From NCBI GenBank assembly GCA_012839815.1, contig DUMQ01000124.1, positions 5,933-69,932 of the forward strand: a stretch of DNA of 64,000 nt, written 5' to 3'. Of this stretch, positions 5,602 to 49,321 are shown piece by piece. This DNA comes from Bacillota bacterium (lineage in GTDB: Bacteria > Bacillota > SHA-98 > Ch115 > JABLXJ01). The position numbers and the translations under genes are program-made. The notes beneath the pieces are model-generated. The model was not told where the DNA came from. It searched no databases and was given only the letters and a program-made list of their open reading frames with translations. Positions within the stretch are counted from its first letter, which is position 1; each line of letters begins with the position of its first letter.

Positions 5602-5872
5602 GATTTAATTCTCTCCCCTCCCAAAGTCTATACGAAAAATATTATATAGGAGACAATGCATCCCTGCATCAAGCAAATCTTGACACTTTTTCTCACTTGC
5701 CCTCATATCTTGAGAAGGATTATTTACATATCCGTCGAAGAAGAATTGCGGCAAAGCAATGTGGGTAAGACGCCAGGAAGCCGACGGAACGTGCAGAGTG
5801 CATGCAAGGCATAAGTAAGAAGGGATAGAACGGGTCAGCACCATATAATAGGATTGAGGGGGTTTGCCAGAC

Positions 5873-6130
5873 ATGGCGGGATTTCTATCCGGGCTTTTCG
5901 GGGGCAAAAAGGGCACAAAAAAATATGAGGACATATTCACGACCGCAAAGAAGATGGGCCAGAGTATCGAGTATGCTTTTAGGCAGGCCGTAGACGCCTC
6001 CGTGGCGGATAAGGTATTCAAAGACAAGAGCGAGGCTTGCGACAAGCTCCTGGAGGTTCTACTGCCAAAGGTTGATTCGGAACTACACCCTGCGCTCCGG
6101 AAGGCGTGCGAGCGCATAAAAGAGCTTTGA
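5873..6130 (+). CDS. Small hypothetical protein (85 aa)
   Basis: GAGGGGG about 10 nt before ATG 5873. Fills the gap, converging on the permease gene. Begins MAGFLSGLFGGKK. Confidence 0.6.
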   Translation: MAGFLSGLFGGKKGTKKYEDIFTTAKKMGQSIEYAFRQAVDASVADKVFKDKSEACDKLLEVLLPKVDSELHPALRKACERIKEL

Positions 6131-6149
6131 GGATCGTGTGCCTGGCCTA

Positions 6150-21367: not shown

Positions 21368-22027
21368 ATGATCCTTGTAATCGACAACTACGATTCATTC
21401 ACGTATAACCTTGTTCAATACCTTGCAGAGATGGGCAGGGAGATAGCTGTCTTTAGAAACGATGCAATCACGCTATCCGAGGTGAGGACGCTCGCGCCCG
21501 AGGCTATCATTATATCCCCCGGCCCCGGCACGCCCGACGATGCGGGCATATCCGTCGAGCTCATTCGCGAGTTTGCCAGCACTACGCCCATTCTCGGAGT
21601 CTGCCTCGGCCACCAGGCGATTGGCCGGGCCTATTCGGCCGGGATCAAAAGGGCCCGTACGCTTATGCACGGTAAAACATCTGTCATAACCCACGATGGG
21701 CTCGGCATCTACAAGGGGTTGAGCAATCCCCTCGTCGGCGGGCGCTACCACTCCCTGGTGATAGATGAGAGTTCGCTGCCTTCCTGCCTGAAGGTAACGG
21801 CGAGGGCGGATGACGGGACCATCATGGGTGTTCGTCACAAGCTATACCCCGTCGAGGGGGTGCAGTTTCACCCTGAATCGGTTCTGACGCCGGCCGGCAA
21901 GTCAATCCTCCGCAACTTCGTGTCCCAGTGTGACTGCCGACGCGGCCGGCTCTATATTAACGATATTAACGGTGGTGTGCCTGGCGGAGAGATGCGAGAC
22001 ACCCCGGCCACTGTGCGGCACTGTTAG
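21368..22027 (+). CDS. trpG: Anthranilate synthase component II (glutamine amidotransferase)
   Basis: IDNYDSFTYNL, SPGPG, GVCLGHQ, GVQFHPES. C-terminal tail derived from a repeat element. Confidence 0.95.
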   Translation: MILVIDNYDSFTYNLVQYLAEMGREIAVFRNDAITLSEVRTLAPEAIIISPGPGTPDDAGISVELIREFASTTPILGVCLGHQAIGRAYSAGIKRARTLMHGKTSVITHDGLGIYKGLSNPLVGGRYHSLVIDESSLPSCLKVTARADDGTIMGVRHKLYPVEGVQFHPESVLTPAGKSILRNFVSQCDCRRGRLYINDINGGVPGGEMRDTPATVRHC

Positions 22028-22069
22028 CTGTTACCTGCGAAAGGTCTGGATATTTTTGCGCACTAACTT
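21981..22069. repeat. Partial copy of repeat family F1 (MITE-like)
   Basis: Closely matches the reverse complement of 47665-47755 and the segment 34346-34419. Ends in GCGCACTAACTT(A). Confidence 0.85.
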
Positions 22070-22121
22070 AGCAGAGCATCCTGGGGTAAATATAGGTCTT
22101 TATTAGAACGGAGGGATCGGC

Positions 22122-33770: not shown

Positions 33771-34011
33771 CTCTTGCTCTCCCCTTATGGCTCTTGTAGC
33801 TCTTGCTCCTGGTGTTATTCTTGAGATTTTTCAGGCTCAAGCTGTGCTGGGCCACCGACACCCCCTCCCGGCTTCACTCGATCAGCATGATCCTTGTAGT
33901 ATTCCAATTATTATATCATATCATGATGCCCCGCCTGATTCTGTAAAGTCCGAAACACTTTCAACAGACATAGTCAGGCTCCCTCCACACCCTTGATTGC
34001 GCTGGCCTTCT

Positions 34012-34419
34012 AAGTAGTGCGGAAAAGTCCCTGCCCTTTTGGGCACTCGCATAGGGAGTCTCGCATCTCTCCGCCCGGCGGCCTTGATCTCCGGCCCAAG
34101 AGCCCTCGGCCGGAGATTACGGAGCGGCCTGCTCGCCTAAGTGTAGGTTCCTTAATTTGTGCCAGTTTACCAACACGTCCCATGGGTTGCCGGTGCTTGC
34201 GTGACGGGGCCTTTTGAAATTTGGCAAGGCCCTCACGCCAAATTTCAACGGAGGCGCGCCGCAAGCGCGCCGTCCCCGGAACGCAACACCGGCAACCCCT
34301 GGAAAAACGTCTATAATCTTCGAACTCGCACTTAGCCGCGCCCGCCGGGCGGAGAGATGCGAGACTCCCCGGCCACTGTGCGGCACTTATAGATGTCACC
34401 TTCGAAAGGTCCGGATATT
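34012..34419. repeat. Expanded copy of repeat family F1 with a nested F2 element
   Basis: Ends match the reverse complement of 47665-47815. A perfect 28-bp inverted repeat (34054-34081 / 34342-34369) encloses a 10-bp hairpin (34087-34117) and the F2 copy. Confidence 0.8.
34138..34334. repeat. Repeat family F2 copy A (197 bp, MITE-like)
   Basis: Imperfect terminal IR TAAGTGTAGGTTC / GAACTCGCACTTA. Inner 17-bp IR at 34184-34201 / 34282-34298. Homologous to 49126-49321. Confidence 0.8.
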
Positions 34420-34468
34420 ATGGTTGTCCATCATACCATCTTGTGGTATGCTCATGGATAGGATAATC

Positions 34469-34526
34469 AAGTTAGTGCGCCAGCCCGGGGCAAGTCTAGA
34501 AGTGGCAAAGCCCTATGCGCTAACTT
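34469..34526. repeat. 58-bp mini-element with F1-type ends
   Basis: Begins AAGTTAGTGCGC and ends GCGCTAACTT(A). Lies directly before the RBS of the DUF763 gene. Confidence 0.65.
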
Positions 34527-34542
34527 AAGGAAGTGACCTGAC

Positions 34543-35640
34543 ATGAGAAGCGGTACGGCCAACCTGCCGCTACATTCCGGCAAGTGCCCCGCGTGGCTAT
34601 TTTCCCGGATGAAGTTGCTCGGGGCTGCGATAATCGAGATCATCGTCGAGGAGTTCGGCCCGCAAGAGGTCCTGCAGCGCCTTTCCGACCCCGTGTGGTT
34701 TCAAGCCCTCGGGTGCGTCCTCGGCTTCGACTGGCATTCATCTGGCATCACGACCACCGTCTGTGGGGCCCTCAAGGAGGGACTGCGCCCTCGCGAGGGA
34801 GACCTCGGCATCTTCTTCGCGGGCGGCAAGGGCGCAACATCCCGTAAGACGCCCCTGGAGATCTCGGATGCCTGCGAAAGGCACGGCCTCCCCTCGGAGC
34901 TCCTCGGCCTCCAGTATGCCAGCAAAATGGCGGCCAAGGTCGATTCCGCGGCCCTCCAGGATGGATATGACATATATCATCACCTGTTTGTTTTCACCGC
35001 GGATGGTAAATGGGCGGTGGTCCAGCAGGGCATGAATGAGGCGACGGGCTGGGCCAGGCGCTACCACTGGATTGGCCAGCTCTCACACGATTTTAGCTTC
35101 GTTTGCGAGCCGCATGCGGGTATCTCGTGCGATCACGTCCACGCCGGCAAAGTCCTCAACATGGTCGCCGCTGAAAGCGAGGAGGCGCGCAAGGCCTCGG
35201 CCTGGCTCGCCAGGGAAGAAACGAGCATGGTCCTCGGGGAGGTCCGGAAGGTATTGAGCCTGCCCGCAAGTCATGCAATCCCGGGAACAGCCCGGCTTGA
35301 AAAGACCCTCCGAGCGGCCTACGAACACCAGCCCGAGGACTTCGAAACGCTACTTTCTGTTCCGGGCGTCGGTCCGGCTACAATCAGGGCCCTCGCTATG
35401 GTCGCCGAGGTAGCTTATGGCGCCAGCCCGAGCCGCAGAGACCCTGTCAGGTACTCCTTTGCTCACGGTGGCAAGGATGGCCACCCGTTCCCCGTTAATA
35501 GAGCCAACTATGACCGGTCCATCCAGGTCCTTGAGGACGCGCTCCGGAGGGCAAGGCTGGGCCAGACAGATAAATTAAAGGCCCTCAGGCGCCTCGCGGC
35601 GTGGCGGGAAGGGGCTGAGGGGGGATACAGGGGATCATGA
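34543..35640 (+). CDS. DUF763 domain-containing protein
   Basis: ANLPLH.GKCPAWLF, GFDWHSSGITT, AKVDSAALQDGY, QQGMN, GVGPATIRAL, YSFAHGGKDGHPFPV. Confidence 0.9.
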   Translation: MRSGTANLPLHSGKCPAWLFSRMKLLGAAIIEIIVEEFGPQEVLQRLSDPVWFQALGCVLGFDWHSSGITTTVCGALKEGLRPREGDLGIFFAGGKGATSRKTPLEISDACERHGLPSELLGLQYASKMAAKVDSAALQDGYDIYHHLFVFTADGKWAVVQQGMNEATGWARRYHWIGQLSHDFSFVCEPHAGISCDHVHAGKVLNMVAAESEEARKASAWLAREETSMVLGEVRKVLSLPASHAIPGTARLEKTLRAAYEHQPEDFETLLSVPGVGPATIRALAMVAEVAYGASPSRRDPVRYSFAHGGKDGHPFPVNRANYDRSIQVLEDALRRARLGQTDKLKALRRLAAWREGAEGGYRGS

Positions 35641-38600
35641 GATTCATTGCTGATTTGCACATCCACTCACGCTACTCCAGGGCTACGAGCGGAGATTGCA
35701 CGCCCGAGGAACTCCACCGCTGGGCAGCGTGTAAGGGGCTCTCTCTCGTCGGCACAGGGGATTTTACCCACCCCGCGTGGCGCGAGGAGCTAAGGCAAAA
35801 ACTGGAGCCAGCAGGAGAAGCTTACGGGATCTATAGGCTCAAGGATGAATTTCGTAAGTCTGCAAGCCGTAGAGCGGCCGCCGAGGGCATCCCCTGGTTG
35901 GATACGCCCAGGGTCGGGTTCATCATCGCCGGCGAGATCAGCACGATATACAAGAAGGCTGGCGCAGTCCGGAAGATCCACCACCTCATTCTCCTCCCGA
36001 GCCTCGAGGCCGCAGATGAGTTGAGCAGGCGACTGGAGCAGGTCGGCAACATCCATTCGGATGGTCGGCCGATCCTAGGGCTTGACAGCCGCGTCCTCCT
36101 GGAGATCACCCTGGAGGCCTGCCCTGATGCCCTGTTTATACCTGCTCACATATGGACCCCGCACTTCTCGCTCTTCGGCGCAAACTCTGGATTCGATGCG
36201 ATCGAAGAGTGCTTCGACGATCTGACGGGGCATATTTATGCGGTCGAGACAGGCCTCTCATCCGACCCGCCAATGAACTGGCGGCTTTCGGCCCTCGATC
36301 GCTTCGCGCTGGTTTCCAACTCCGACGCCCATTCACCGGCCAACCTCGCTCGGGAGGCAAACATCTTTGATACTGAGCTGTCCTTTGATGCCATACGCAA
36401 AGCCCTAAGGGACCGCGATCCCGCGCGATTTATAGGGACACTGGAGTTCTTCCCGGAGGAGGGCAAGTATCATTACGATGGTCACAGGGCGTGCGGGGTC
36501 CGGTGGAAGCCGTCAGAGACCCGCGCCGCTGGAGGGGTTTGCCCTGTGTGCGGCCGCAAGGTCACCGTCGGGGTCCTGCACCGGGTCGAGGAGCTTGCCG
36601 ATAGACCCGAGGGGGCAAAACCCCCGGCCGCCCGGCATTTCGAAAGCCTGGTCCCCCTCGCCCAGGTCATTGCCTCGGCCCTCGGCGTAGGCGAATCCTC
36701 CAGGCAGGTGCGCGAGCAATACACCGCACTCATACGCGCCCTCGGCCCGGAGCTCGCCGTGCTGAGGGAATCATCCCTCGAGGACGTTAGATCCGCAGCC
36801 AGCCCGGCCGCAGGTGCGGCTATAGCCGAGGCTATTCGAAGGGTCAGGGCGGGTGAAATTGAGATTAAACCCGGTTTCGACGGCGAGTACGGGAGCATCG
36901 TCGTGATGCGCGACGAGGATAGGAAGCGTCTCCGGGGTCAGGGCAGCCTGTTTGGGTCCCTTTTTGCCGGGGCAGCTCCGGCATCGTGCGCGTCCCGTGA
37001 TCTCCACGGTAGCGCGGCCGCATCTGTTGCCGCTGTAGCCGCTCCTCGAATCAGCGAGCCGGGAGAGTCGAGGGAGCGAGGCATACCCATCGGGACGGGC
37101 GAACCGTCTAAATCGCCATCATCTGTATCGCCTGTACCTGGTGAACCGGTACGACCTACGGCATCAGCCGCGCCCCTTCCAGCGGACGGGCTCAACCGCG
37201 CCCAGCGCGAGGCGGTTATGGCCGAATCCGGTCCAATTATCGTGATCGCCGGGCCGGGCACCGGCAAGACCCGGACCCTGGCCCACCGTATCGCCTACCT
37301 GGTCGGGGAGCGTAATGTAAATCCCGCTCAGATCACAGCTGTCACCTTCACAAATAAGGCCGCCGCTGAAATGCGGGCGCGGGTCAAGGATCTCCTCAAC
37401 GACCCAGACCCCGATAGCGCCAATCAGGGCAGCCATGCAGGTCACCTGGAGGGCCTCACCATAGGGACGTTCCACAGCATCTGCCTGGACATGCTCAAAG
37501 CCTGCGCAGGCCACACCGGGTCTAAGACCATGATCATTCTCGATGAATTCGATGCCCGGTCGGTCCTGGAGGAGGTCCTGAAGGAATCCAGGGTTGGGAG
37601 GGGTATCAACGCGCGGGAAGCCCAGAGGCAAATCTCCCTCCTAAAAGGCCGCGGTATCCGGCCACCCGAGGCCGGAGCCCTCGTCCCGGGCGAACTCTCC
37701 CGGATCTACAGCGCCTACCAGGAAAGGCTGGCCCACTACATGGCCCTCGACTATGATGATATACTGCTGGAGACCGCGCACCTGATGCGACGGGAGAGGC
37801 GGCGAGAAGGCCGGGAGTCCTGCCTGCCGGAGGGGTGGCTCGACCGCTTCACCTATCTCCTGGTCGACGAGTTCCAGGACGTGAACCCCATTCAATATGA
37901 GCTCGTGAAACTCTGGGCCGGAGACGGCACCCGGCTCTTTGTCATCGGCGACCCGGACCAGGCCATTTACGGTTTCAGGGGGGCGGATCACAGGTTCTTC
38001 GAAAGGCTGCGGGAGGATTTCCCCGCCTCCAAAGTCTACAAGCTCACGATAAACTACCGCTCGACGCCCCAGATTCTGGGGGCAGCCTCGGCGCTCATAG
38101 CTCACAACCTCGACTGCGCTGGCCTCAAGCTTGAAGCCGCAAAAAGCAACGGGTTCAGGATTCGCCACATCGAGGTGCCCGGCGAGATTGCCGAGGGTAT
38201 CGCAATCGTGAGGGAGATCGGGCGCATGGTTGGGGGCGCAACCATGCTCCAGGCCCACCAGGCCAGTGGCCAGGGCGGCGGCTCAGACCCACGAGGCGGG
38301 CCCGCACCAGGGGAACCAGCGGCCACCAGCCTCCAGGATATAACCAGGAGCTTCTCGGATATCGCCGTGCTCTTCCGCACAGGGCGCCAGGGTGAGGTCC
38401 TGGAAGAGTGCTTCCTCAAGGAGGGCATCCCCTACCGCATCGTGGGGCGCGAGAGCTTCCTGGAAGACAGAGATGTGCGCGCAGCCCTCGACTTCCTGAG
38501 ATGCGTGGTGAACCCTGCGGATGAATTCCACTTCTCACGATGTCTTGTGTCGAATGCGAGTGCAGGAGGAGACCCGGAGGCTCTCAAGGCCCGGATCGAG

Positions 38601-39269
38601 GCATACAGGAACCTCAGCGTGTCCGAGCCGCCTGATCGACTGCTGGCACGGTGGATCGAGGAGGAGTCCGCCTGTAACCCTGGTTCCCGTGGCAATGAAG
38701 CCGTGAGACGGCTTATGAGGGTGGCCTCTCGTTTCGATAGCCTGGAGTCCTTCATAGTTGGAATCAACCTCGCCCGGGAAGCCGATCACGAAAGGCCCGG
38801 CCCCCGCGGACGAACGTCAGCATCACCGGCCACGGCAGCCACAGCGGCCTCTACAAGCGCGCCCGAGGCGGTAACTTTGATGACCATGCATGCAGCCAAA
38901 GGCCTGGAGTTCCCCGTGGTATTCATCGCCGGCGTTGAGGAGGGGATAATACCGCTCAAGGGTTCTCCAGGCGTTGACAGTACAGGCGCCACCGATACCG
39001 GCGAGGACAACGACCCAGAAATCTCGGAGGAGAGACGGCTGTTTTATGTCGGCATGACGCGCGCCATGGATGAGCTCATCCTCCTGTCGGCGCACAGGCG
39101 GGCACAATCCGGAACCAGCAGGCCAGCCACCCCGTCTCGCTTCCTCGATGAGATCCCTCCAGATTTCATACAGCGCGAAGTTCGATCCGCAAAGCCTAAA
39201 GGAGGCAAGGCGAATAAAGGGTGCGATGGGAGGCCAGACGGGCAGCTCAGCCTTTTCGCCCCAAGTTAG
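35637..39269 (+). CDS. Endonuclease Q (PHP/TIGR00375-type) fused to UvrD/PcrA-like superfamily 1 helicase
   Basis: N-terminal DLHIHS, GTGDFTHP, SNSDAHS, GKYHYDGHRAC, CPVCG, PGFDGEYG. Helicase motifs AGPGTGKT, TFTNKAA, VDEFQD, GDPDQAIYGFRGA, NYRS, TMHAAKGLEF, RRLFYVGMTRA. Confidence 0.9.
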   Translation: MRFIADLHIHSRYSRATSGDCTPEELHRWAACKGLSLVGTGDFTHPAWREELRQKLEPAGEAYGIYRLKDEFRKSASRRAAAEGIPWLDTPRVGFIIAGEISTIYKKAGAVRKIHHLILLPSLEAADELSRRLEQVGNIHSDGRPILGLDSRVLLEITLEACPDALFIPAHIWTPHFSLFGANSGFDAIEECFDDLTGHIYAVETGLSSDPPMNWRLSALDRFALVSNSDAHSPANLAREANIFDTELSFDAIRKALRDRDPARFIGTLEFFPEEGKYHYDGHRACGVRWKPSETRAAGGVCPVCGRKVTVGVLHRVEELADRPEGAKPPAARHFESLVPLAQVIASALGVGESSRQVREQYTALIRALGPELAVLRESSLEDVRSAASPAAGAAIAEAIRRVRAGEIEIKPGFDGEYGSIVVMRDEDRKRLRGQGSLFGSLFAGAAPASCASRDLHGSAAASVAAVAAPRISEPGESRERGIPIGTGEPSKSPSSVSPVPGEPVRPTASAAPLPADGLNRAQREAVMAESGPIIVIAGPGTGKTRTLAHRIAYLVGERNVNPAQITAVTFTNKAAAEMRARVKDLLNDPDPDSANQGSHAGHLEGLTIGTFHSICLDMLKACAGHTGSKTMIILDEFDARSVLEEVLKESRVGRGINAREAQRQISLLKGRGIRPPEAGALVPGELSRIYSAYQERLAHYMALDYDDILLETAHLMRRERRREGRESCLPEGWLDRFTYLLVDEFQDVNPIQYELVKLWAGDGTRLFVIGDPDQAIYGFRGADHRFFERLREDFPASKVYKLTINYRSTPQILGAASALIAHNLDCAGLKLEAAKSNGFRIRHIEVPGEIAEGIAIVREIGRMVGGATMLQAHQASGQGGGSDPRGGPAPGEPAATSLQDITRSFSDIAVLFRTGRQGEVLEECFLKEGIPYRIVGRESFLEDRDVRAALDFLRCVVNPADEFHFSRCLVSNASAGGDPEALKARIEAYRNLSVSEPPDRLLARWIEEESACNPGSRGNEAVRRLMRVASRFDSLESFIVGINLAREADHERPGPRGRTSASPATAATAASTSAPEAVTLMTMHAAKGLEFPVVFIAGVEEGIIPLKGSPGVDSTGATDTGEDNDPEISEERRLFYVGMTRAMDELILLSAHRRAQSGTSRPATPSRFLDEIPPDFIQREVRSAKPKGGKANKGCDGRPDGQLSLFAPS

Positions 39270-40225
39270 CCCGCCCGGGGCGGGATCAATGTCCAGACCC
39301 GCGGGTCCTCCTGGCCGAGCTCCCAGATGGCGACACCGGGTATCCCGTGCTCCCGCACCAGCGCCAGTTTCCAGTCGACAGATTCAAAGCACTGATACCA
39401 GACCACATGCCATCTCCCCGAATCGGTACCAGGGGCGAGGTAGACCAGTGTGCACTCGCGCGACACGGGATCGAATACCAGCGGGGCATTATACGTTTCC
39501 GATATCCTTACTACATCCCTGAACGTTACAGTCGCAGCTGGCTCGACGGGAGCGAGGGGCCAGTCGTAGCCGTAGACCCCTATGGCCATAAACAGCTTCC
39601 TGAGAGGCACTTGCGAAAGCGCGAAATTCATTACCGTCCTGTACCAATTGTAGGATGCGATCGGGCCCGGGGGTCCTGTGAACGAGTGCTCCTCATATGC
39701 CAGGATAACGAGCCAATCCACATACCGCGAGAGTGCGGCGTAATCGAACCCGCCCGACCAGGGGTGCCTGGGGTCTTCCTCGGTCTTCCCCGGAACGGCC
39801 TGTGTCACCAGTATGCGATACGGTCCCGAGGTCAGGTAGAGTTCCCTCATAAAGCTAGTCAGCGCCTGGCGATCCTCAGGGTCCACATTCTCGAGATCTA
39901 TGTGCACCCCGTCCAATCTGAAGCGCCGGGCTGCCGCTATGATATTATCAATAGCTCTTCTTTTTGCCATGGGGTTCACGAGCACGGCGTGGGCTATCTC
40001 TCGTATGAACCTTCCTTCAAGAAAGTTGTGAAAGGTCCCCATGACCCTCAGGCCTCTAGACCGCGCAAATTCATACGCCTCCATATCTGGAGAGCCGGTT
40101 ACATCGCCCTCCGAGGTCAGGCGAAACCACCAGCCCGAGATCCCCGTCATATGGCGATAAAATCGCCTCAAGGATGGCATCGATTCACCACCATAATAGC
40201 CCCAGACCTGCAGTCTCATCGGCAT
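39266..40225 (-). CDS. GH18 family glycoside hydrolase (spore SleL/YdhD-like, no LysM)
   Basis: DGVHIDLENV catalytic motif variant, GGFDYAAL, AYEEH, GPIAS, GVAIWELGQED. Confidence 0.8.
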   Translation of the reverse strand: MPMRLQVWGYYGGESMPSLRRFYRHMTGISGWWFRLTSEGDVTGSPDMEAYEFARSRGLRVMGTFHNFLEGRFIREIAHAVLVNPMAKRRAIDNIIAAARRFRLDGVHIDLENVDPEDRQALTSFMRELYLTSGPYRILVTQAVPGKTEEDPRHPWSGGFDYAALSRYVDWLVILAYEEHSFTGPPGPIASYNWYRTVMNFALSQVPLRKLFMAIGVYGYDWPLAPVEPAATVTFRDVVRISETYNAPLVFDPVSRECTLVYLAPGTDSGRWHVVWYQCFESVDWKLALVREHGIPGVAIWELGQEDPRVWTLIPPRAG

Positions 40226-40425
40226 GCACCTCGATTCATCATCGATCTCGATTCGTTCCCGATGGTGACAGCCCTCTGATCTAATCCACCTGATCTAATA
40301 TATGGCAGGTAGCCCAGATTGCTGCGGGTCCTGGGCATATATAAACGATTGACAAGAGAAAAGGTTTTGTTATCCTTGGTGATGGAGTGGAGTATAATCT
40401 GGGAGAGGAGAGCCGCAGGTAAACC

Positions 40426-41340
40426 GTGAAGCTCAAAAGACTTACCGCTAAACCCATCCTATCCCCCATCGCCGATCATGACTGGGAGAGGACGGCAGTC
40501 TTCAACTGCGCCGCCATCTACGATGACGGCCTGTTTCATCTCTTCTACCGTGCGACAGACCGGCCCTTTGGCGATTTCACTGTAAGATTCGTATCCAGCA
40601 TAGGCTATGCCGTGAGCGAGGACGGGATCCATTTCACACGATTTGAAAAGCCTATTTACACCGGCCTCGGGCCGCAGGAGGACTGGGGCGTCGAGGACCC
40701 GAGAATCACGAAGATCGAAGACACCTATTATATGCTCTATACAGCCTTCGGTGGCCGCAGCCTCGATGACGTGCGCATCTCCATGGCATCGACAAAGAAG
40801 CTCGGGCCCGAGGGCTCCGGCGCCTGCCCGTGGATGTGGATGAGGCACGGGGTCGTCCTCGACGAGCCAAACAAAGACGCCGCCCTCTTCCCGGAGAAAA
40901 TCCAGGGGCGCTACGCCATGCTGCACAGGCGTCCACCGGGCATTTGGATCGCCTTTTCGGATGATCTCAAAACCTGGATCGACCATCAAAAGATCATGGA
41001 TGTGGTCCCCGGCAACTGGGACTCATACAAGATAGGGGCGGCCGGGCCCCCCATCAAGACACCCGGAGGGTGGCTCCTCATGTACCACGGCGTCGACGAG
41101 AAACGCGTCTACCGCCTTGGCGCCGCCCTTTTAGACCTGAAGGATCCCACAAGGGTGCTGGCGCGACGGCCCGAGCCGATCCTTGAGCCCGAGCTTGACT
41201 GGGAGATAAACGGGCTCGTCCCAAATGTGGTATTCAGCTGCGGTGCGGCCGAGACCGATGATGCCTATTTCGTGTACTATGGAGCCGCCGACACCTGCAT
41301 CGGCGTTGCCGCCATGCGAAAGGATGAAGTGAAGTTTTAA
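40426..41340 (+). CDS. GH130-like glycosidase/glycoside phosphorylase
   Basis: VFNCAA, GVEDPRIT, NKDAALFPEKI.G.YAMLHR, KIGAAGPPI, YHGV, NVVFSCG, YYGAADT. Confidence 0.88.
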   Translation: MKLKRLTAKPILSPIADHDWERTAVFNCAAIYDDGLFHLFYRATDRPFGDFTVRFVSSIGYAVSEDGIHFTRFEKPIYTGLGPQEDWGVEDPRITKIEDTYYMLYTAFGGRSLDDVRISMASTKKLGPEGSGACPWMWMRHGVVLDEPNKDAALFPEKIQGRYAMLHRRPPGIWIAFSDDLKTWIDHQKIMDVVPGNWDSYKIGAAGPPIKTPGGWLLMYHGVDEKRVYRLGAALLDLKDPTRVLARRPEPILEPELDWEINGLVPNVVFSCGAAETDDAYFVYYGAADTCIGVAAMRKDEVKF

Positions 41341-41364
41341 GGTTCTGGGCTCCGACTCAGAGGA

Positions 41365-42339
41365 TCAAGAGAACAAGCGCCGCGCGGAGTTCCTCACGGG
41401 GTTGGTGAGCGTGCCCACCCTCTCGATCTCGACGGTTACTACGTCACCGTCCTCCAGGAAGACGGGCGGCTTTCGCTTGAACCCGACGCCCGACGGGGTC
41501 CCTGTGGCTATAATGTCACCGGGTTCGAGCGTCATCAAGCTCGATAGGTAAGCGATCAATTGCCTTACCCCGAAAATGAGTTGCGAGGTGCTGGAGTCCT
41601 GCATGACCACACCGTTTAGATGAAGCCTGATCGCGAGGTTTTCGGGGTCAGGGACCTCGTCACTCGTTATGAGGTACGGTCCCATGGGGGCGAAGGTGTC
41701 AAGCGTCTTGCCCTTGATCCACTGGCCATCCCTGAATTGCAGGTCACGCGCGCTCACATCGTTAAAGGCCGTGTACCCCGCGATGTGATCCATCGCGCGG
41801 TCGGCAGGGATGTCCCTGCCCCGCTTCCCGATGACCACCGCCAGCTCGGCCTCGTAATCTACTTGCTTTGTAACAGGCGGTATGATTATGGGCTCGCCCG
41901 GGCCTATTACGGCGTTGGCGAACTTCGAAAACAACACCGGCTCGCCCGGCAGGTCTGCACCGATCTCCGCGGCGTGATCCCGGTAATTGAGCCCGATGCA
42001 TATGATCTTCCCTGGCCGCGCCACCGGAGCGAGGGTTCTGAGCTCGTCCATGGAATGGATAATGCCGGTCTCACCCGTCATAGTCATCGCGAATTCCACC
42101 GCCTGCGCCGCAGCCTCCAGGCTTCGACTGCCGCCCTCCAGAAATGCCACCATATCATCAGGCACCAGGGCATCGGCGAGGCGCCCCGCGCACGGTTCGC
42201 CCTCTGCAGCGAGGCGCGCGCGATAGGCTGCATTCAAGTGAATCACTCTTGAGCCGGGCTCAGCTCCAGCCTCGGAGCCGGGGCCGGCCACGACCCCGAC
42301 AAAACTACGTCCATTATACAAAAAAGTCCCCAACTTCAA
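41365..42339 (-). CDS. Fumarylacetoacetate hydrolase family protein
   Basis: KIICIGLNYRDH, DYEAELAVVIG, NDVSARD, GKTLDTF, LEPGDIIATGTPSGVG. Confidence 0.92.
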   Translation of the reverse strand: MKLGTFLYNGRSFVGVVAGPGSEAGAEPGSRVIHLNAAYRARLAAEGEPCAGRLADALVPDDMVAFLEGGSRSLEAAAQAVEFAMTMTGETGIIHSMDELRTLAPVARPGKIICIGLNYRDHAAEIGADLPGEPVLFSKFANAVIGPGEPIIIPPVTKQVDYEAELAVVIGKRGRDIPADRAMDHIAGYTAFNDVSARDLQFRDGQWIKGKTLDTFAPMGPYLITSDEVPDPENLAIRLHLNGVVMQDSSTSQLIFGVRQLIAYLSSLMTLEPGDIIATGTPSGVGFKRKPPVFLEDGDVVTVEIERVGTLTNPVRNSARRLFS

Positions 42340-42493
42340 GGGTCAAGTCACTCCCGCTTTTATGATTACGCTTCCACTTAAGAACTAGACATTCATCCCG
42401 TGCCGGTCTGCCTTTAAGTCGTTCATATACACAGCTTCTTCATCCGACTGCTATCGCCTCCAGAGGTGGCATATGTAGCTATTGCACAAGGCT

Positions 42494-43696
42494 TCATTCA
42501 TAGCGCAGGGCCTGGATCGGGTCCAGATTTGCGGCTTTATAGGCGGGGTAAACCCCGAATATGAGGCCAACAAGCGAGCTCGAGGCAAAGGCCACAGCCA
42601 CTGCCAGGGGTGATACGCTAGCGGGAATTGGGGAGACGGCAGCGATCAGATGGGCCCCAAGGGCTCCAAATATTATCCCGATAATGCCACCTGTAAGGCA
42701 CAACATTACCGCCTCAGTAACAAACTGCCGCAAGATGTCCCCTTTCCTGGCCCCGACCGCCTTCCTTATCCCGATCTCCCGGGTGCGCTCGGTCACGGTA
42801 ACCAGCATGATGTTCATTACGCCTATTCCGCCCACAAGCAGGGATATACCCCCTATCCCGCCGAGGATCGCAGTGAAGATCCCCAGGATCACCCTGGCGG
42901 ATTCAAGAAAGGACTCGGAACTCTGGGTGAGAAACCTGTTATCTTCGCCATAGCGCCGCCTTAAGAAGCCATTAACCTCATCCACCGCCAGCCTCACCGA
43001 CTCAACATCAGTCGCCTGCGCCATGATGAAACTCACCCTGTCAAATCCGGTGATCCTCCGCGCGATGCTCGCCGGGAGGTAAACGTAGGAATCCTCCGTG
43101 TTCATGCCGCTAAACAGGCCGCTCTGTCCCCTCCGCTTCATTATACCGATAACAGTGCAGCTGAGATCATTGATCCTGATCGTCTCGCCAATGGGATCTC
43201 CGGGCCCGAAGAGCTTGTCAGCTATATCCCGGCCGAGAACCGCCACGAAGCGCCTTCCGCGGATGTCAGACTCGGAGAAGAACCTCCCCGCATCCATGCT
43301 GAAACCCTGCATCCATGCAAATTCATCGTTTACGCAGACTACGGTCGTCCCTTCATCCTCGCGCCCATATTTTACGGTTCCCCTCGCATTGATGTAGGGA
43401 CTCACGTAGAGAAGATGAGGGCATGCGGCCTTCAGGAGATCAACCTCTTCAAATGATAAATACGGGATGTCTCCCATCCTCACGTCCTCATTGTGATAGT
43501 TCGGCTGGATGAACACCATATTGGAGCCCATACCCTCGAGCTCCCCGGTTACCTCGACGCGCGCACCCTCGCCGATCGAAACCATTGTTATAACAGACGC
43601 AACGCCGATGACGATACCGAGCAGGGTAAGCGCGGACCGGAGTTTATTTGCCATGATGCTGGCGATAGCCAGGCTGACATATTCCCTAAATCCCAT
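42494..43696 (-). CDS. MacB/FtsX-type ABC permease (YknZ-like)
   Basis: NKLRS.LTLLGIVIGV, VGGIGVMNIMLVTVTERTREIGIRKAVGA, YPAYKAANLDPIQALRYE. No N-terminal ATPase domain. Confidence 0.92.
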   Translation of the reverse strand: MGFREYVSLAIASIMANKLRSALTLLGIVIGVASVITMVSIGEGARVEVTGELEGMGSNMVFIQPNYHNEDVRMGDIPYLSFEEVDLLKAACPHLLYVSPYINARGTVKYGREDEGTTVVCVNDEFAWMQGFSMDAGRFFSESDIRGRRFVAVLGRDIADKLFGPGDPIGETIRINDLSCTVIGIMKRRGQSGLFSGMNTEDSYVYLPASIARRITGFDRVSFIMAQATDVESVRLAVDEVNGFLRRRYGEDNRFLTQSSESFLESARVILGIFTAILGGIGGISLLVGGIGVMNIMLVTVTERTREIGIRKAVGARKGDILRQFVTEAVMLCLTGGIIGIIFGALGAHLIAAVSPIPASVSPLAVAVAFASSSLVGLIFGVYPAYKAANLDPIQALRYE

Positions 43697-43783
43697 ACCA
43701 ATCCATTATCCTCCAAGCGCTTTTCGCAAATGATCATCCTTATCCTCCAAGAAGCGTTTCTCGCGATCCCCTCAGCGTTTTCT

Positions 43784-45331
43784 TCAGCGTTTCTTCCCTT
43801 CATGCGTTCCAGCCGCCGTGCTCGCTATCTCTACCCTTACGACATCTCCCTCCTTCAAGGTTTTCAGGGCCTGGTAGCTCCCGACAACCACCTCATCGCC
43901 AGGCTTGATGCCGCTCAGGATCTCCGTATCCGTGGGGGTTTCCATCCCCGTCTCGACCTCGACCTCGCGGGCCTTCCCGTCCCTTACAACAAACACGACG
44001 CTGCGGGACTTTCGAGCGCCCGGCTCTTGGCTAGTGCCTGTAGCGCCTGTTGCCTCACGCTCGACAACGGCCTGGCTCGGGATGGATACAACCTTCTCCC
44101 TGTCATACACAACTATCCGGGCATCAGCGGTCATGCCCGGGCGCAGGATGCCGTCCCCATTCTCCACGGATATCTCCACGGTAAACTTGGGGACCGACCC
44201 ATCCAGCGTCGCCTGCGGGGCGATCCTCTCAACCCTCCCCGCGAATTCGCGCGACAAAGCCGCATCGCAGGAGACCTTAACCGCCTGCCCCACCTTCACC
44301 TTGGCGATGTCCACCTCATCGACCTTTGCCTTCATAATGATGCGATCAAGGTCGAGGATAGCCATGAGCAGCGTGCCTTCCTGCACGGCCCCTCCCTCTT
44401 TCGCATTGACTCCGGCTACGACCCCTGAAATGGCAGCCTTCACATCTTTATCTGCAAGCTGTCTCTCCGCCCTTGCACAGGCAGCCTCAGCCTGCTGTAT
44501 CCTTAGCTCAAGGGCCCTCCTGCGCTCCAACTGCGACCTGGCAGCATTAATCGCGAGCTCCAGGCCGATCTCGGCATCCTTGACCTCCGAGCGGGCCACG
44601 ATGAGTTGGGATTCGGTTGGGCCCTCGATAATAGCATCATACTGCTTCCTGGCGGACTCATAGCGCGCCCGCGCGATCTTCTCCTGGGTAACCGCCTCGT
44701 TGAACGCGTTCTTGGAGACAGCGCCCGCCTCAAACAGGGAACGCATCTTTGAAAGATTCACCTCGGCATCGCGCAACGTCACACCGGCCTCGTCCAGGGC
44801 CGCCTTCGCCTGGGCGACCTCGGCATCATCGGGCCCGGCTTCGAGCTCCGCCAGGCGCGCCCTCGCCGCCTCGAGCCGCGCTCGCGCCTGGGCGACCTTG
44901 GGGTCCTTGCCAGGATCATCGCGGGCCAAGGAGTTGCTTCCGGCTGAGGCATTGAGCTCCGCAAGATCAGCCCTTGCCGCCGCCAGAGCCGCCCTGGCCT
45001 CATCAAGCTGCAACTTGAGATCGGATGAATCAAATGACACAAGAACCTGGCCGCGGTCCACCCTATCCCCGTCCTTGACGTAGACGCGCTCGACCAGCCC
45101 TGAAATCGGGCTCCTGACCTCATATGAGCGGGAGGACTCTATAACGCCCGAGCCAGGCACCGTGGCCGTAAACCTTCCCTCCCGCGCAACGGCCGTCTCC
45201 ACGGATTTCCCGGGCGGGCTTAACACACCCTTTTTCTTTGCAACGACGCCGATCCCCAGGCTCACCACCACAACAACAAGGAGCCCGATAAGCCCGAACA
45301 ACGCCTTCCTGCGGGATGATCTCAGGGACAA
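43784..45331 (-). CDS. Periplasmic adaptor / membrane fusion protein (YknX/MacA-like)
   Basis: N-terminal TM, lipoyl-like SPISG.V..V.VKDGDRV..GQ, long coiled coil, VDEVDIAKVKVGQ, LRPGMT. Confidence 0.9.
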   Translation of the reverse strand: MSLRSSRRKALFGLIGLLVVVVVSLGIGVVAKKKGVLSPPGKSVETAVAREGRFTATVPGSGVIESSRSYEVRSPISGLVERVYVKDGDRVDRGQVLVSFDSSDLKLQLDEARAALAAARADLAELNASAGSNSLARDDPGKDPKVAQARARLEAARARLAELEAGPDDAEVAQAKAALDEAGVTLRDAEVNLSKMRSLFEAGAVSKNAFNEAVTQEKIARARYESARKQYDAIIEGPTESQLIVARSEVKDAEIGLELAINAARSQLERRRALELRIQQAEAACARAERQLADKDVKAAISGVVAGVNAKEGGAVQEGTLLMAILDLDRIIMKAKVDEVDIAKVKVGQAVKVSCDAALSREFAGRVERIAPQATLDGSVPKFTVEISVENGDGILRPGMTADARIVVYDREKVVSIPSQAVVEREATGATGTSQEPGARKSRSVVFVVRDGKAREVEVETGMETPTDTEILSGIKPGDEVVVGSYQALKTLKEGDVVRVEIASTAAGTHEGKKR

Positions 45332-45634
45332 TTTGTGTCACCTCGCCTTAGCTGGCGCCTTATATGGCCAAATCCGCAATGGGGAGTCAGTGTTCCAATG
45401 TAGTCGATACTCCAAGTTTTTAACGTTCTTCTTTTTTCCTGTATATCCTGCCGGGCCCATCATAATTTTGCAATAGGAGCAGGTAATTCATGAAGGAAAA
45501 CGGCTGGTGCGCCCGAAGTATTAAGGAGGATCGGCTGGTTCGATAGATCATGCCCGATGGATCATAGGACAGCGTAATATCACCGTCACGGATATCATTA
45601 TATAACATATTATACGGAAGGAGCGTGATTTCCT

Positions 45635-46324
45635 ATGGTTTCTGAAATAAATCCGGGGATGGAGGGAAATGGCGAGGAGAATAAGCGCCGACCCGACCCT
45701 GTCGAGCGGTTTCTTACCATTATGATCGATCCTGCAGGGACATTCAAGGATATAGTCGAGCGCCCGGACTTCGCGATCCCTGTTGTCCTGGCGGTCCTCA
45801 CGGCGCTTCTGGGCATTCCCGTCGCGATGCATTCGGTCAAGAACCTGCCCCCGCAACCCGGCATGCCGCCAGCTCTGATGAGCCCCGCCCTTGCCGGAGG
45901 TATCGCGGCTGTATCGGCCCTCGTGATGCTCCTCATCTGGTGGCCGGTGCGGGCGCTCATATTCATGGGCCTCGGCGCCGCGCTCGGTTCGCGCGTTGAT
46001 TTCAAGAAAAGCCTCGCGGTGGCGGGCTATCTCAATTACTCCGCGTTTATCTCTTCGCTGATCTCGGCCATAACCGTGCTCGCCCTGGGATCCCCCGTGA
46101 TGCCCGGCCTGGGAATGGGCCTATCGCCGGAGCAGCTTGCGACGCCCAGGGGGGTGTTGCTCACAAACCTGAACATAACCTCCCTTATTTACATCTTCCT
46201 GAGTACATTCAGCCTCTCCGAGCTGTGGAGGACGTCCCGCGCACGGGCCCTGGCAGCCACCGTTATAATGTGGGCGCTTGTCCTCGCAGCCAGCGCGGGC
46301 CTGGCAAAGCTGGGGGCTAAATAA
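45635..46324 (+). CDS. Yip1 domain membrane protein (YknW-like)
   Basis: IDP..TFKDIVERP at the N-terminus followed by about five hydrophobic segments. Confidence 0.7.
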   Translation: MVSEINPGMEGNGEENKRRPDPVERFLTIMIDPAGTFKDIVERPDFAIPVVLAVLTALLGIPVAMHSVKNLPPQPGMPPALMSPALAGGIAAVSALVMLLIWWPVRALIFMGLGAALGSRVDFKKSLAVAGYLNYSAFISSLISAITVLALGSPVMPGLGMGLSPEQLATPRGVLLTNLNITSLIYIFLSTFSLSELWRTSRARALAATVIMWALVLAASAGLAKLGAK

Positions 46325-47579
46325 CCTCTATCTTGCCGTACTCGCCGTCGAAGCCGGGGGTGATACTGATCTCTCCCGCCCTCACCCGGCGGACGGCCTC
46401 AGCGACCTCCGGCCCGGCAACGCGCGCCAGGTCGTCGATGCTAACGTGGCGCAGGATCGAAAGCTCCGGGCCGAGCTCCCTGAGCAGGGCGTAATAGCGC
46501 GTCTGGACCTTCTTCGTTGATTCGCCGACCCCAAGAGCAGAGGCGATGATCTCAGATAACGGGACCAAGCTCTCGAAACGCCGGGCGGCCGGGGGTTTTG
46601 CCCCCTCGGGTCTATCAGCGAGTTCCTCGACCCGGTGCAGGACCCCGACGGTGACCTTGCGGCCGCACACAGGGCAGACCCCTCCAGCGGCGCGGGTCTC
46701 TGACGGCTTCCACCGGACACCGCACGCCCTGTGACCATCGTAATGATACTTGCCCTCCTCCGGGAAGAACTCGATGGTCCCGATAAACCTATCCGGGTCG
46801 CGCCTCCGGAGCGCCTCCCTTATAGCTGTAAACGACAGCTCCGTATCAAAGATGTTGGCTTCGCGGGCCAGCTTACGCGGCGAATGGGCATCGGAGTTGG
46901 ATGTGAGGGCAAACCGGTCGAGTGCCGAAAGCCGCCAGTTCATGGGCGGGTCGGACGAAAGCCCGGTTTCAACCGTATAGATATGTTCCACCAGGTCCCC
47001 GTAACACTCGTCGATGCTGTCAAATCCCGAGTGGGCGCCAAAAACCGAGAAATGGGGCGTCCAGATATGGGCGGGGACGAATAACGCCTCCGGGCATACA
47101 TCAAGCGTCATTTGAAGGAGTTCACGGCTATCGATCCCGAGGACCGGACGGCCGTCAGCGCTGAGATTCCCTATCCCATCCAGGCGCCGGCTCAGCTCAT
47201 CGGCGGCATCGAAACCGGGCAATAATATGAGGTTGTGAATCTTCCGGGTTCTTCCGGCCTTCTTGTATATAGTGCTGATCTCGCCCGAGAGCATAAACCT
47301 GACCTGCACACTGTCCAGCCAGGGGATCCCCTCGGCAGAGGCTTCGCCCGCGACCGTTCTGCGGAATTCATCTTTAAGTATGTAGGTTCCATCGCCGTCT
47401 CCGGCAGGCTCCAACTTTTGCCGGAGTTCCTCCCGCCACGCGGGGTGGGTGAAATCTCCCGTTCCGACGAGAGCGACGCCCTTGTAGGCTGCCCAACGGT
47501 AGAGCCCCTCGGGCACGCAATCCTTGCTCGTGGCCCGGGAGTAGTGTGAGTGAATGTGTAGATCGGCGATAAACCTCAT
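46317..47579 (-). CDS. Stand-alone Endonuclease Q family protein (PHP, TIGR00375-type)
   Basis: DLHIHSHYSRAT, GTGDFTHP, SNSDAHS, GKYHYDGHRAC, CPVCG, PGFDGEYG. Paralogue of the N-terminus of 35637-39269. Confidence 0.9.
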   Translation of the reverse strand: MRFIADLHIHSHYSRATSKDCVPEGLYRWAAYKGVALVGTGDFTHPAWREELRQKLEPAGDGDGTYILKDEFRRTVAGEASAEGIPWLDSVQVRFMLSGEISTIYKKAGRTRKIHNLILLPGFDAADELSRRLDGIGNLSADGRPVLGIDSRELLQMTLDVCPEALFVPAHIWTPHFSVFGAHSGFDSIDECYGDLVEHIYTVETGLSSDPPMNWRLSALDRFALTSNSDAHSPRKLAREANIFDTELSFTAIREALRRRDPDRFIGTIEFFPEEGKYHYDGHRACGVRWKPSETRAAGGVCPVCGRKVTVGVLHRVEELADRPEGAKPPAARRFESLVPLSEIIASALGVGESTKKVQTRYYALLRELGPELSILRHVSIDDLARVAGPEVAEAVRRVRAGEISITPGFDGEYGKIEVI

Positions 47580-47664
47580 GCGAATAGCGCGACCTCCATG
47601 CCGGCAATTGTGGTTGTATGGTTGCAGGTAGTAGTTTGCCCATATACGTTCTCTTCATTACGGT

Positions 47665-47815
47665 AAGTTAGTGCGCAAAAATACCCGGACCTTTCTCAGG
47701 TAACAGCTACCAGTAGTTCACATTAGCCGGGGTGTCTCGCATCTCTCCGCCGGGTGGCGAGATGCGAGACACCGTATGCGAGTGCCAAAAAGGCAGAGAT
47801 CTTTGCGACTAACTT
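47665..47815. repeat. Repeat family F1 complete copy (151 bp, MITE-like)
   Basis: Terminal IR AAGTTAGTGCGCAAA / TTTGCGACTAACTT. Internal perfect 15-bp palindrome at 47731-47745 / 47759-47773. Confidence 0.85.
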
Positions 47816-49140
47816 TGGTCTAGAGCCGCCACAATCTCCTCCTTCACGCGAGCATCATCCTCTCTCCGGTAACGGTCCTCAAGATACCTCCTGCCTCTCG
47901 TGCCGCCGACGGTCCCAAGAGACCAGGCAGCATGCCCCCTGATTACAGGCCGCGGGTCATCCAGACACGCCTTTAAGATCGGGATCGCTACGTCTATACC
48001 ATGATCATCCCTCAGATTCCCCAGGGCGATCACGGCGTTACGCTGCAGGACCGTCCTCCCTCTCCAGCCTGCTGCCGTGAGGCCATATACTTCCTTGAAT
48101 CTGGAATTAGACATGGTCAGGACATCCAGAAGGTCGGGGGCCACATCATCCCGGCTCCGTGGCCGGAAGGCGTCAAGCCCGGCGGGGGCAACCCTCTCAT
48201 TCCTCGGACAGACCTCCTGGCACGTATCGCACCCGTAAAGACGAAATCCCATCTTCGTCCGCATATCGCGCGGCACGAAACCCCGCACCTGCGTGATATA
48301 CGAAAGACATATATTTGCATTAGTAACGTAAGGCCGGCGCGGGTCCAGGGCGCCCGTGGGACATGCCCTTAGACATATGTCGCAATCACCACAACCATCC
48401 TCGCCGCCCTCATAGCGTTCACCTGCCGCCGGTTCGGGAGATCCGGCCCCGGCCCAGGGTGTGTCAGGTTCGAGTTCGAGGTCAGTCAGGATTTCACCCA
48501 GGAAAACCCATGACCCGTATTTACGCGTGAATATGCTGCAATTCTTCCCATACCAGCCTATTCCCGCCCGCCAGGCAATGGCTCGATCCACTAACTGGCC
48601 CGTATCTACAAAGCTTGCGAGCCGCACAGGCCGTGGGGAATTCTGAGTCAGGAAATCGCTGAGCTGCTGCAGGATCGACCCTACAACCACATGATAATCC
48701 CTACCCCAACTAGACATGGATATCCGCCCCCTGGGTCTCCCGCGTGGATCCTGACTTGTTTCCTGCTCTGGATTCTGCGCGTCGAAACCGGGTTTCCCTG
48801 CGTTCCCTGCAAATGGGGCGGCACCCGGGCCCGCACTCGTAGCGTATGGCACCGCTATAGCGATGATCGAGCGCGCCCCCGGCATAACCCTGCCCGGGTC
48901 ACACCTCAGCCCTACATCCCTCTCTTCAAAAGGGGATCTATAGCCATCCCTGTCCCGCTCTCTCAACACATCATCTAGCCGCATAAATGGGGACGCATGG
49001 GTGACACCTATAACCTCAATGCCTATCGACCTGCTAAAATCCTTTAGTTTAGATTTAAGATCCTTAAATGAACTATCCCTGGCGGCAGGCAATTCCGCAA
49101 TCACCCTTTCCGCTTCTGCTCCGGCTAAGAATAAGTTCAA
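47809..49140 (-). CDS. queG: Epoxyqueuosine reductase
   Basis: WGRDYH, VDTG..VDRAIA.RAGIGWYGKN, FLGEILTD, CGDCDICLRACPTGA, YGCDTCQEVCP.N, RNAVIALGN. Start uncertain because it overlaps the F2 element. Confidence 0.92.
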   Translation of the reverse strand: MNLFLAGAEAERVIAELPAARDSSFKDLKSKLKDFSRSIGIEVIGVTHASPFMRLDDVLRERDRDGYRSPFEERDVGLRCDPGRVMPGARSIIAIAVPYATSAGPGAAPFAGNAGKPGFDAQNPEQETSQDPRGRPRGRISMSSWGRDYHVVVGSILQQLSDFLTQNSPRPVRLASFVDTGQLVDRAIAWRAGIGWYGKNCSIFTRKYGSWVFLGEILTDLELEPDTPWAGAGSPEPAAGERYEGGEDGCGDCDICLRACPTGALDPRRPYVTNANICLSYITQVRGFVPRDMRTKMGFRLYGCDTCQEVCPRNERVAPAGLDAFRPRSRDDVAPDLLDVLTMSNSRFKEVYGLTAAGWRGRTVLQRNAVIALGNLRDDHGIDVAIPILKACLDDPRPVIRGHAAWSLGTVGGTRGRRYLEDRYRREDDARVKEEIVAALDQS

Positions 49141-49321
49141 AGATTACCGCCACTTTTCCCGGGATTGCCGGTGATTGCGCGACGAGGCCTTTGAAATCTG
49201 GCAAAGCCCTTGCGCCGAATTTCAACGGAGGCGCGCCGGAAGCGCGCCGTTCCCGGAGCGCAACACCATAAGTCCTGGGACGTGCTGGTAAACTGGCGCA
49301 AATTAAGGAACTTACACTTAG
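49126..49321. repeat. Repeat family F2 copy B
   Basis: Flanks match copy A in reverse complement, while the ~80-bp core matches copy A in forward orientation. Ends TAAG... and ...CACTTA. Confidence 0.8.

Follow-up and report, generated by a model that had tools for sequence, protein, structure and literature searches.

The window analysed here, a 64,000-nucleotide stretch of a Bacillota genome (C112:5933-69932 of G000, a 2.8-Mb metagenome bin of 163 contigs with a completeness score of 99.7%), contains two copies, A and B, of a short repeat, F2, whose asymmetric core reads in the same direction in both copies while the flanks on its two sides are inverted. Copy A is nested in a copy of a second repeat, H, and the genes around the two copies are ordinary (DUF362, DUF763, UvrD-like helicase, QueG and DegV). 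The sequencing runs in which the genome is found are biogas-fermenter metagenomes. With the duplicated TA dinucleotides taken as limits, copy A spans 34138-34334 and copy B 49126-49320, the element proper being 34140-34332 and 49128-49318, respectively, when the duplications are excluded. An earlier note, made from the sequence alone, had located both copies correctly, but for the end of copy B, which it had placed at 49321. The parts of the two copies and the H sequences of the window are collected in table 1.

Table 1. Parts of F2 copies A and B and of element H, in window coordinates.
Feature	Position	Strand	Remarks
H, left part (earlier family F1): end CTAAGTAGTGCGG.., arm Q, 27-28-bp stem, core up to CTAG	34010..34136	+	
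Copy A, left TA target-site duplication	34138..34139	.	empty GCTCGAC-TA-GCCGCG vs filled GCTCGAC-TA-[AGTG..CACT]-TA-GCCGCG
Copy A, arm X, terminal inverted repeat and subterminal part	34140..34182	+	CTAAGT..C..TTT pattern common with IS630-family element ends
Copy A, left inner stem TGGGTTGCCGGTGCTTGCGT	34183..34202	+	bears the unpaired C
Copy A, asymmetric core	34203..34280	+	three-way junction with the inner stems (predicted folds, covariation)
Copy A, hairpin 1	34214-34248		within core
Copy A, hairpin 2, loop CGCAA	34253-34271		within core
Copy A, right inner stem ACGCAACACCGGCAACCCC	34281..34299	+	
Copy A, arm Y, terminal inverted repeat, private variant	34300..34332	-	junction with core on 108-nt Logan contig
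Copy A, right TA duplication	34333..34334	.	
H, right part: remaining core, stem, arm P	34335..34419	+	outer end truncated
Copy B, left TA	49126..49127	.	
Copy B, arm Y, diverged variant Y3	49128..49160	+	
Copy B, left inner stem	49161..49180	+	
Copy B, core, loop CGGAA	49181..49257	+	direction as in copy A, 87.5% identity
Copy B, right inner stem, other stem allele CACCATAAGTCC	49258..49275	+	
Copy B, arm X	49276..49318	-	93.5% identity to reverse complement of copy A arm X
Copy B, right TA	49319..49320	.	
H copy with short loop, without F2 insertion	47664..47793	-	
H, partial copy: stem and arm P, end ..GCGCACTAACTTAG	21979..22070	+	

The claim of the earlier note that the core is turned relative to its flanks between the two copies is borne out by global alignment. 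Core A and core B agree in the forward direction at 70 of 80 positions, against 50% for core A and the reverse complement of core B, i.e. the level of shuffled sequences (mean 54%, maximum 64%), and the left flank of A, so close to the reverse complement of the right flank of B, matches the left flank of B at 54%. A mechanical repeat finder returned the core as a direct repeat (34213-34290 / 49190-49267, 90%) and the flank as an inverted one (34137-34182 / 49276-49321, 93%). The right flank of A matches the reverse complement of the left flank of B at 64% only, because copy B has a diverged arm variant; compared across the family, the two clearly belong to one arm type. A self-complementary core, which could have given the appearance of a common direction, is ruled out: core A matches its own reverse complement at 57.5%, and the reverse identities (50-57.5%) are thus those of shuffles. 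The runs were examined as Logan contigs, which break in the repeat, and only the diverged copy B, with private substitutions throughout its length, was spannable. Independent contigs of two runs (X1 and X2) span it with 0 differences, and one contig joins the 3' side of the core of copy A to the private Y-arm variant of this copy. In the light of the exact reproduction of a diverged copy in two runs and of the confirmed junction of copy A, an assembly error as the cause of the flip is unlikely.

F2 is a 193-bp element devoid of open reading frames (ORFs) and present in about 100 copies in the 2.8 Mb of the genome, in which the core gives 157 BLAST matches, about 95 of them cut by contig ends. 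When all cores are oriented alike, the flanks sort into two unlike arm types, X (CTAAGTGTAGGTTCCTTAATTTGTGCCAGTTTACCAGCACGTCCCA) and Y (CTAAGTGTAAGTTCGAAGATTACTGACGTTTTTCCA plus variants), of ~34-43 nt each and alike only in the first ~14 nt; their tips share CTAAGTGTARGTTC and a common pattern can be followed over ~34 nt, i.e. terminal inverted repeats are present. Between each arm and the 78-nt asymmetric core lies the inner inverted repeat seen in the earlier note, which is real, 19-20 bp long and found as two alleles (GGGTTGCCGGTGCTTGCGT / ACGCAA(G)CACCGGCAACCC and GGACTTACGGTG / CACCGTAAGTCC). Tabulated genome-wide, flank and core orientations give two forms, with about 43 copies of form A (X-core-Y), to which copy A belongs, and about 60 of form B (Y-core-X), besides 2 X-X copies and 1 Y-Y copy. 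Of the X-X copies, the one at the end of contig C7 has the appearance of a snap-back artefact of the assembly. The description of F2 as a small non-autonomous element with an invertible or swapped cassette thus stands as to its size, the lack of an ORF and the two directions of the cassette, 'invertible' being supported in the sense that the cassette was turned or swapped on several occasions; several results speak against an ongoing regulated switching, of which none was seen.

The target of F2 is read from family H. Its site ...GCTCGA-CTAG-CCGCGTCC is empty (GCTCGA-CTAG-CCGCG) in 3 H copies and filled, as C-TA-[AGTG...F2...CACT]-TA-G, in about 45, and therefore the target is CTAG and the duplication TA. 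Nearly all F2 copies are bounded by CTAAGT/CTAGGT...ACTTAG, and an H variant with CCTGG instead of ACTAG never carries F2. Insertion sites mostly differ from those of the sister species, with only 1 shared filled locus among 20 loci compared in its genome (G001), and the pair C78 (this genome) and L002 (G001) is too diverged for a clean empty-site alignment. Judged by such features, F2 is best described as a non-autonomous MITE (a miniature transposable element with inverted repeats) of the IS630/Tc1-mariner type.

As to a transposase with matching ends, DDE_3 was searched for in this genome and is absent from it; on the contig of the window neither DDE_3 nor Resolvase nor Phage_integrase gave a match, in agreement with the earlier note, which had seen no recombinase in the window. 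Long pairs of F2 or H ends, considered as a possible autonomous partner, enclose ordinary genes, and no transposase is found at a candidate end on C41. DDE_3 is, instead, present in the sister genome, where an IS630-family element of 1143 bp (L148:883-2025), with limits CTA-AGTTAGTG...CATTAACT-TAG, codes for HTH_29/23/32 and DDE_3 in two ORFs. Its ends (CTAAGTTAGTG..TTTGCCACTTTGCC) align with the X, Y and H arms in 9 invariant columns and over a pattern of ~34 nt, at a distance too great for BLAST; they match the H arms better than those of F2, and the arms of another family align too. The match is too weak for this element to be named the partner of F2 itself, which is likely to be of this kind. 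No cassette-like sequence was found inside the IS630 loci of relatives. The transposase of the sister-genome element (on its contig C12) is split into a 152-aa HTH ORF and a 184-aa DDE_3 ORF, which could be a frameshifted pseudogene or a case of programmed frameshifting.

The single strand of F2 is predicted to fold into a long stem with a three-way junction on top, from which two hairpins depart (z -6.6 as DNA and -7.6 as RNA); the earlier note, too, had recognized two hairpins in the core. The extra base of the inner inverted repeat, an unpaired C, travels with the core across the whole family: in the frame of the core it is nearly always found on the upstream stem, whichever arm adjoins. 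The points of exchange must therefore lie outside it, in the outer part of the inner stem or beyond, which is where the crossover had been placed from the two copies of the window. In an alignment of 83 distinct cassettes (i.e. core with both inner stems) from at least 10 genomes, 92.2% of the cells are paired, versus 33-44% when partners are slid, and 15 of the 43 pairs show changes on both sides, a figure that none of 500 shuffles reaches (7.3 +/- 1.6). Hairpin 2 is paired in 98.8% of the cells, with no two-sided change, and its loop reads CGCAA in 207 cases and CGCGA in 37, with single cases of CGTAA and of CGGAA, so that G-N-R-A is always kept. Such covariation shows that the stem arms co-evolve, but not necessarily that they function as RNA, because a recombining inverted repeat homogenises its own arms. 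A locus common to this genome (C127:20909-21419) and the sister genome (L021) bears on exchange across the inner stems: flanks and arms are ~98-100% identical and the direction of the core is the same, and the differences cluster in both inner stems and are mutually complementary, i.e. the stems, or the whole cassette, have been replaced in situ in a concerted manner. A search of the window with Rfam 15 gave no match at the gathering score, the only matches at 34000-34450 being chance ones (E > 1).

Between this genome and the sister genome, an independent assembly of 50 contigs of up to 435 kb, the 116-nt stem-core-stem unit has 97% identity; in the sister genome Y-core-X prevails, and X-core-Y is found at L020 and L022. 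In genomes of a further family of the same class (f3) the unit is 80-86% identical, the richest of them having 138-328 first-pass candidate matches each, before scoring, and none of the 19 genomes taken as a sample of other classes of the phylum has it. Over these two families the cassette is better conserved than the transposon ends. Its direction relative to the arms is nearly fixed in f3, both with arms of other types (M/N, 71:1) and with X-like/Y-like arms (9:0), and the frequent occurrence of two forms is therefore a property of this genus and not of the cassette as such. Further relatives with the cassette are uncultured 'Bacillota bacterium' bins. The cassette is also found on two contigs (L108 and L134) of JBLNCC01, 'Betaproteobacteria bacterium MAG135'; this bin comes from the same study as several of the Bacillota bins, and a binning error is probably to be assumed rather than transfer. 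Contig depths of run X2 sum to 5000-8700 over hairpin 2 and the right stem (window 34244-34311), compared with 300-1100 over the rest of F2, and thus many other organisms of the community bear this part of the cassette, the most conserved one. At C61:5338-5473 in this genome lies a relative of F2, of 136 bp and with diverged arms, the core of which has hairpin 2 but not hairpin 1.

The host element of copy A is built like F2, with common tips (CTAAGTTAGTGCGCAAAAAT), unlike arms P and Q, an inner stem of 27 bp and an asymmetric core, in the CTAG of which copy A sits. The form of F2 goes with its context: among copies nested in H (Hc-X composites) 17 are of form A and 8 of form B, as compared with 1 and 17, respectively, among complete stand-alone copies (Fisher's exact p = 3.6e-5), and particular configurations were, by this association, amplified. 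Whenever F2 lies in H, arm X invariably adjoins GCTCGA, a constancy that implies one founding insertion followed by the spread of the composite; the 8 flipped composites must therefore have arisen afterwards. Half-composites made of one H end and one F2 end are found in several copies (P-S-Y-core-X and P-S-Hc-X-core-Y, e.g. C105:7382-7580 and C51:43346-43649) and suggest that ends need only be compatible to be mobilised as a pair. Nesting goes one step further at C40:8570-8740, where a third type of nested repeat, ~150-170 bp long and with the ends GAGACTGTTGA / TCAACAGTCTC, sits at GTTCGA in the Y arm of an F2 copy.

The direction of the core is unrelated to that of the genes nearby, be they upstream (36:41) or downstream (39:41), and to the strand on which most genes lie (28:33), and arm direction is likewise without bias; no promoter-like (sigma-70-like) or terminator-like site is present inside either F2 copy of the window, and the Logan contigs of X1 and X2, from which rare variants are dropped, contain no strand-changing joint at copy B. 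F2 is, for these reasons, most likely not a regulated switch. Contigs of a metatranscriptome of the same study cover F2, one of them, of 96 nt, lying over the core with a depth of 115 where the unique flanks have depth 0; RNA over the core is thereby hinted at, but these data have no strand direction, the signal sums ~100 copies and carry-over of DNA is possible.

How, then, did the two forms arise? We infer, as the probable course of events, that F2 is an IS630-type MITE, that a few inversions of its cassette, or conversions in inverted register, took place across the inner repeat, and that both forms were then amplified. The X and Y ends would serve as the ends bound by the transposase, and mobilisation would take place in trans, by an IS630-family enzyme such as is present in the sister species and absent from this genome. 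Recombination across the 19-20-bp inner inverted repeat of the element itself, with exchange points outside the unpaired C of the stem, would have turned the cassette on a small number of occasions, be it by intramolecular crossover, by template switching during replication or by gene conversion from another copy in inverted register. Transposition would have multiplied both products, X-core-Y mainly nested in H and Y-core-X mainly alone. The patterns of form and context fit a few inversions, each then amplified.

Several observations weigh against this account. The forms are undifferentiated in arm X, arm Y and cassette (permutation p = 0.32, 0.99 and 0.90, respectively, in a test of low power and on a short-read metagenome assembly, which can scramble variants inside a near-identical cassette of 120 bp). 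Flips that were recent and repeated, or abundant gene conversion, agree better with this than a small number of old events. The core of H is also found both ways relative to its arms (27 P-S-Hc versus 10 Q-S-Hc), a hint that the process in this genus is more systematic. With no IS630 transposase in this genome, the recent burst of F2 would call for a partner that has since disappeared or that was left out of the bin, and the form per locus is only half known for the ~95 copies cut by contig ends. Two old, diverged subfamilies, also considered as the whole account, are not supported by the sequences, distances within forms being equal to those between forms.

Were the cassette to flip frequently and still today at every locus, by stem recombination or template switching or by hairpin (snap-back) copying, the genome would be a snapshot of a mixed population. 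The near balance of the overall counts, the arm and cassette polymorphisms common to both forms, the concerted evolution of the two stems, the two directions of the H core, a predicted T-shaped fold with the topology of parvovirus terminal repeats and the many contigs that break within the cassette would all agree with it. A 200-bp repeat at 95-99% identity would, however, be likely to break contigs in any case, and such flipping is hard to reconcile with the tie between form and context, with the nearly fixed direction in f3 genomes that have the same stems and fold, and with a copy B that is identical, and without a strand-changing joint, in the contigs of two samples; on balance we regard it as rather unlikely. 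More doubtful again is that the cassette is a selected structural module, i.e. a three-way junction of single-stranded DNA or RNA that a protein of the element or of the host would recognize and that may be needed for snap-back copying, with flip/flop, like that of parvovirus termini, as a by-product. Besides the almost invariant hairpin 2 and its C-G-N-R-A loop, the module would comprise the unpaired C that is usually present in the stem and a tandem GA/GA internal loop, and it would, if so, be common to MITE lineages that swapped their transposase-binding arms.

Conservation across the class above that of the arms, and the presence of the same cassette between pairs of arms that are unrelated to one another (in this genus X/Y; in f3 M/N and X-like/Y-like), could also be taken to mean that the cassette is a mobile unit of its own, with ends GGGTTGCCGGTG..., which inserted either way into carrier MITEs made of arms only. 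No cassette-less X-Y, X-X or Y-Y arm pair exists, however, in this genome; the position between the arms is constant, no target duplication flanks the cassette, the flanking bases continuing the palindrome, and one direction is nearly fixed in f3, all of which makes the proposal improbable. A phase-variation switch (inverton), in which a site-specific invertase with its gene elsewhere turns the cassette around at the inner repeats and so alters the expression of the neighbours, would account for an inverted-repeat-bounded segment in two directions, and 1 serine and 12 tyrosine recombinase matches are found elsewhere in the genome. It is nevertheless very improbable, given the lack of promoter-like and terminator-like sites in the element and of a recombinase on the contig, a direction that is random relative to the neighbouring genes, a form that tracks context and a copy B without a second form in two samples. 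Least credible of all is an artefact, i.e. a cassette threaded the wrong way at one copy or junctions of different strains joined in a short-read metagenome bin in which many of the 163 contigs end in the repeat and in which the X-X copy at the end of C7 has the appearance of a snap-back artefact. The arm-core junctions span ~31 nt only, and must hence occur in reads; copy B, diverged throughout, came out without a difference when two runs were assembled with other software, a junction of copy A was confirmed, and both forms exist in the independent long-contig sister genome.

Among known systems, the closest analogue of F2 is the Correia element (CREE) of Neisseria, which is flanked by a TA duplication. 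We know of no sequence relation between the two, nor of a transposase partner for Correia. What the two have in common is a MITE of 100-200 bp with a copy number above 100, variant terminal inverted repeats, mixed subtypes and a conserved core; the Correia repeat variants have been listed (PMC9778887), and the element 'can undergo inversion' (reviewed in PMC10969869). In Correia, however, it is the element that flips, between its terminal repeats; in F2 it is a cassette inside the element, bounded by the inner repeats, and the unlike arms keep their places. Furthermore, promoters are created by the ends of Correia, which also have an IHF site, as opposed to F2, in which no promoter-like site was found. 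The RUP element of Streptococcus pneumoniae also makes a TA duplication and is linked to IS630-Spn1. It shares with F2, as do other IS630-mobilised MITEs (e.g. Nezha), the small size, the lack of coding capacity, the terminal inverted repeats and the target duplications. F2 has, in addition, the long, near-perfect internal inverted repeat, the class-wide three-way-junction core, the unlike arms and the two cassette directions, none of which, to our knowledge, has been described for RUP. RUP is listed as a classic MITE (PMC3184786), and the mosaics of repetitive extragenic palindromic (REP) units of enterobacteria, known as bacterial interspersed mosaic elements (BIMEs), are described as abundant intergenic palindromic units (PMC3184786 and PMC2817692). 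F2 resembles the latter in its mosaic arrangements and alternating orientations; REPs are, in contrast, hairpins of 20-40 nt that are associated with RAYT (Y1) transposases and lack both TA duplications and IS630-like ends. Invertons, too, are segments bounded by short inverted repeats and found in two directions, but they have a promoter and an invertase of their own, and both of their directions coexist at one locus within a population; none of these features was found for F2.

The terminal hairpins of parvoviruses (e.g. adeno-associated virus, AAV) consist of a stem and two small hairpins (T/Y shape), with an asymmetric tip that occurs in two mutually inverted forms (flip/flop), the arms of the stem being unchanged. 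The fold of F2, as predicted, can be likened to this T shape with its asymmetric tip, and flip/flop is formally the same rearrangement. The parvovirus structures are, however, the ends of a linear single-stranded genome, in which hairpin transfer takes place in each round of replication and yields about equimolar forms; F2 lies in the interior of a bacterial chromosome, its form is bound to context and, in relatives, stands at 71:1.

As a MITE, F2 is ordinary biology, and the cassette is the unusual part of it. Less ordinary are a cassette conserved across a class (80-86% over two families), in which compensatory changes keep the three-way junction; its occurrence both ways at ~40:60 in one genome, with essentially one form in relatives; and the presence in one genome of two nested MITE families, both with a flipped core. 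Such a genome offers a natural system to measure recombination between short inverted repeats and gene conversion among dispersed repeats, and it could be used to test whether bacterial MITEs use hairpin intermediates. At a practical level, F2 breaks short-read assembly at ~95 contig ends, which matters for the binning or closing of such genomes. Of all parts of F2, the conserved three-way-junction cassette most deserves further study.

The segment between the two copies contains a further duplication. The first ~370 codons of the UvrD-like helicase gene (35637-39269, 1210 aa) are repeated in inverted orientation with 77% nucleotide identity (35636-36754 versus 46462-47580), and the repeat forms a separate ORF of 420 aa (46317-47579) with no Pfam match. 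A copy of H lies upstream of each, at 34342-34419 for the helicase operon and at 47680-47757 for the 420-aa ORF.

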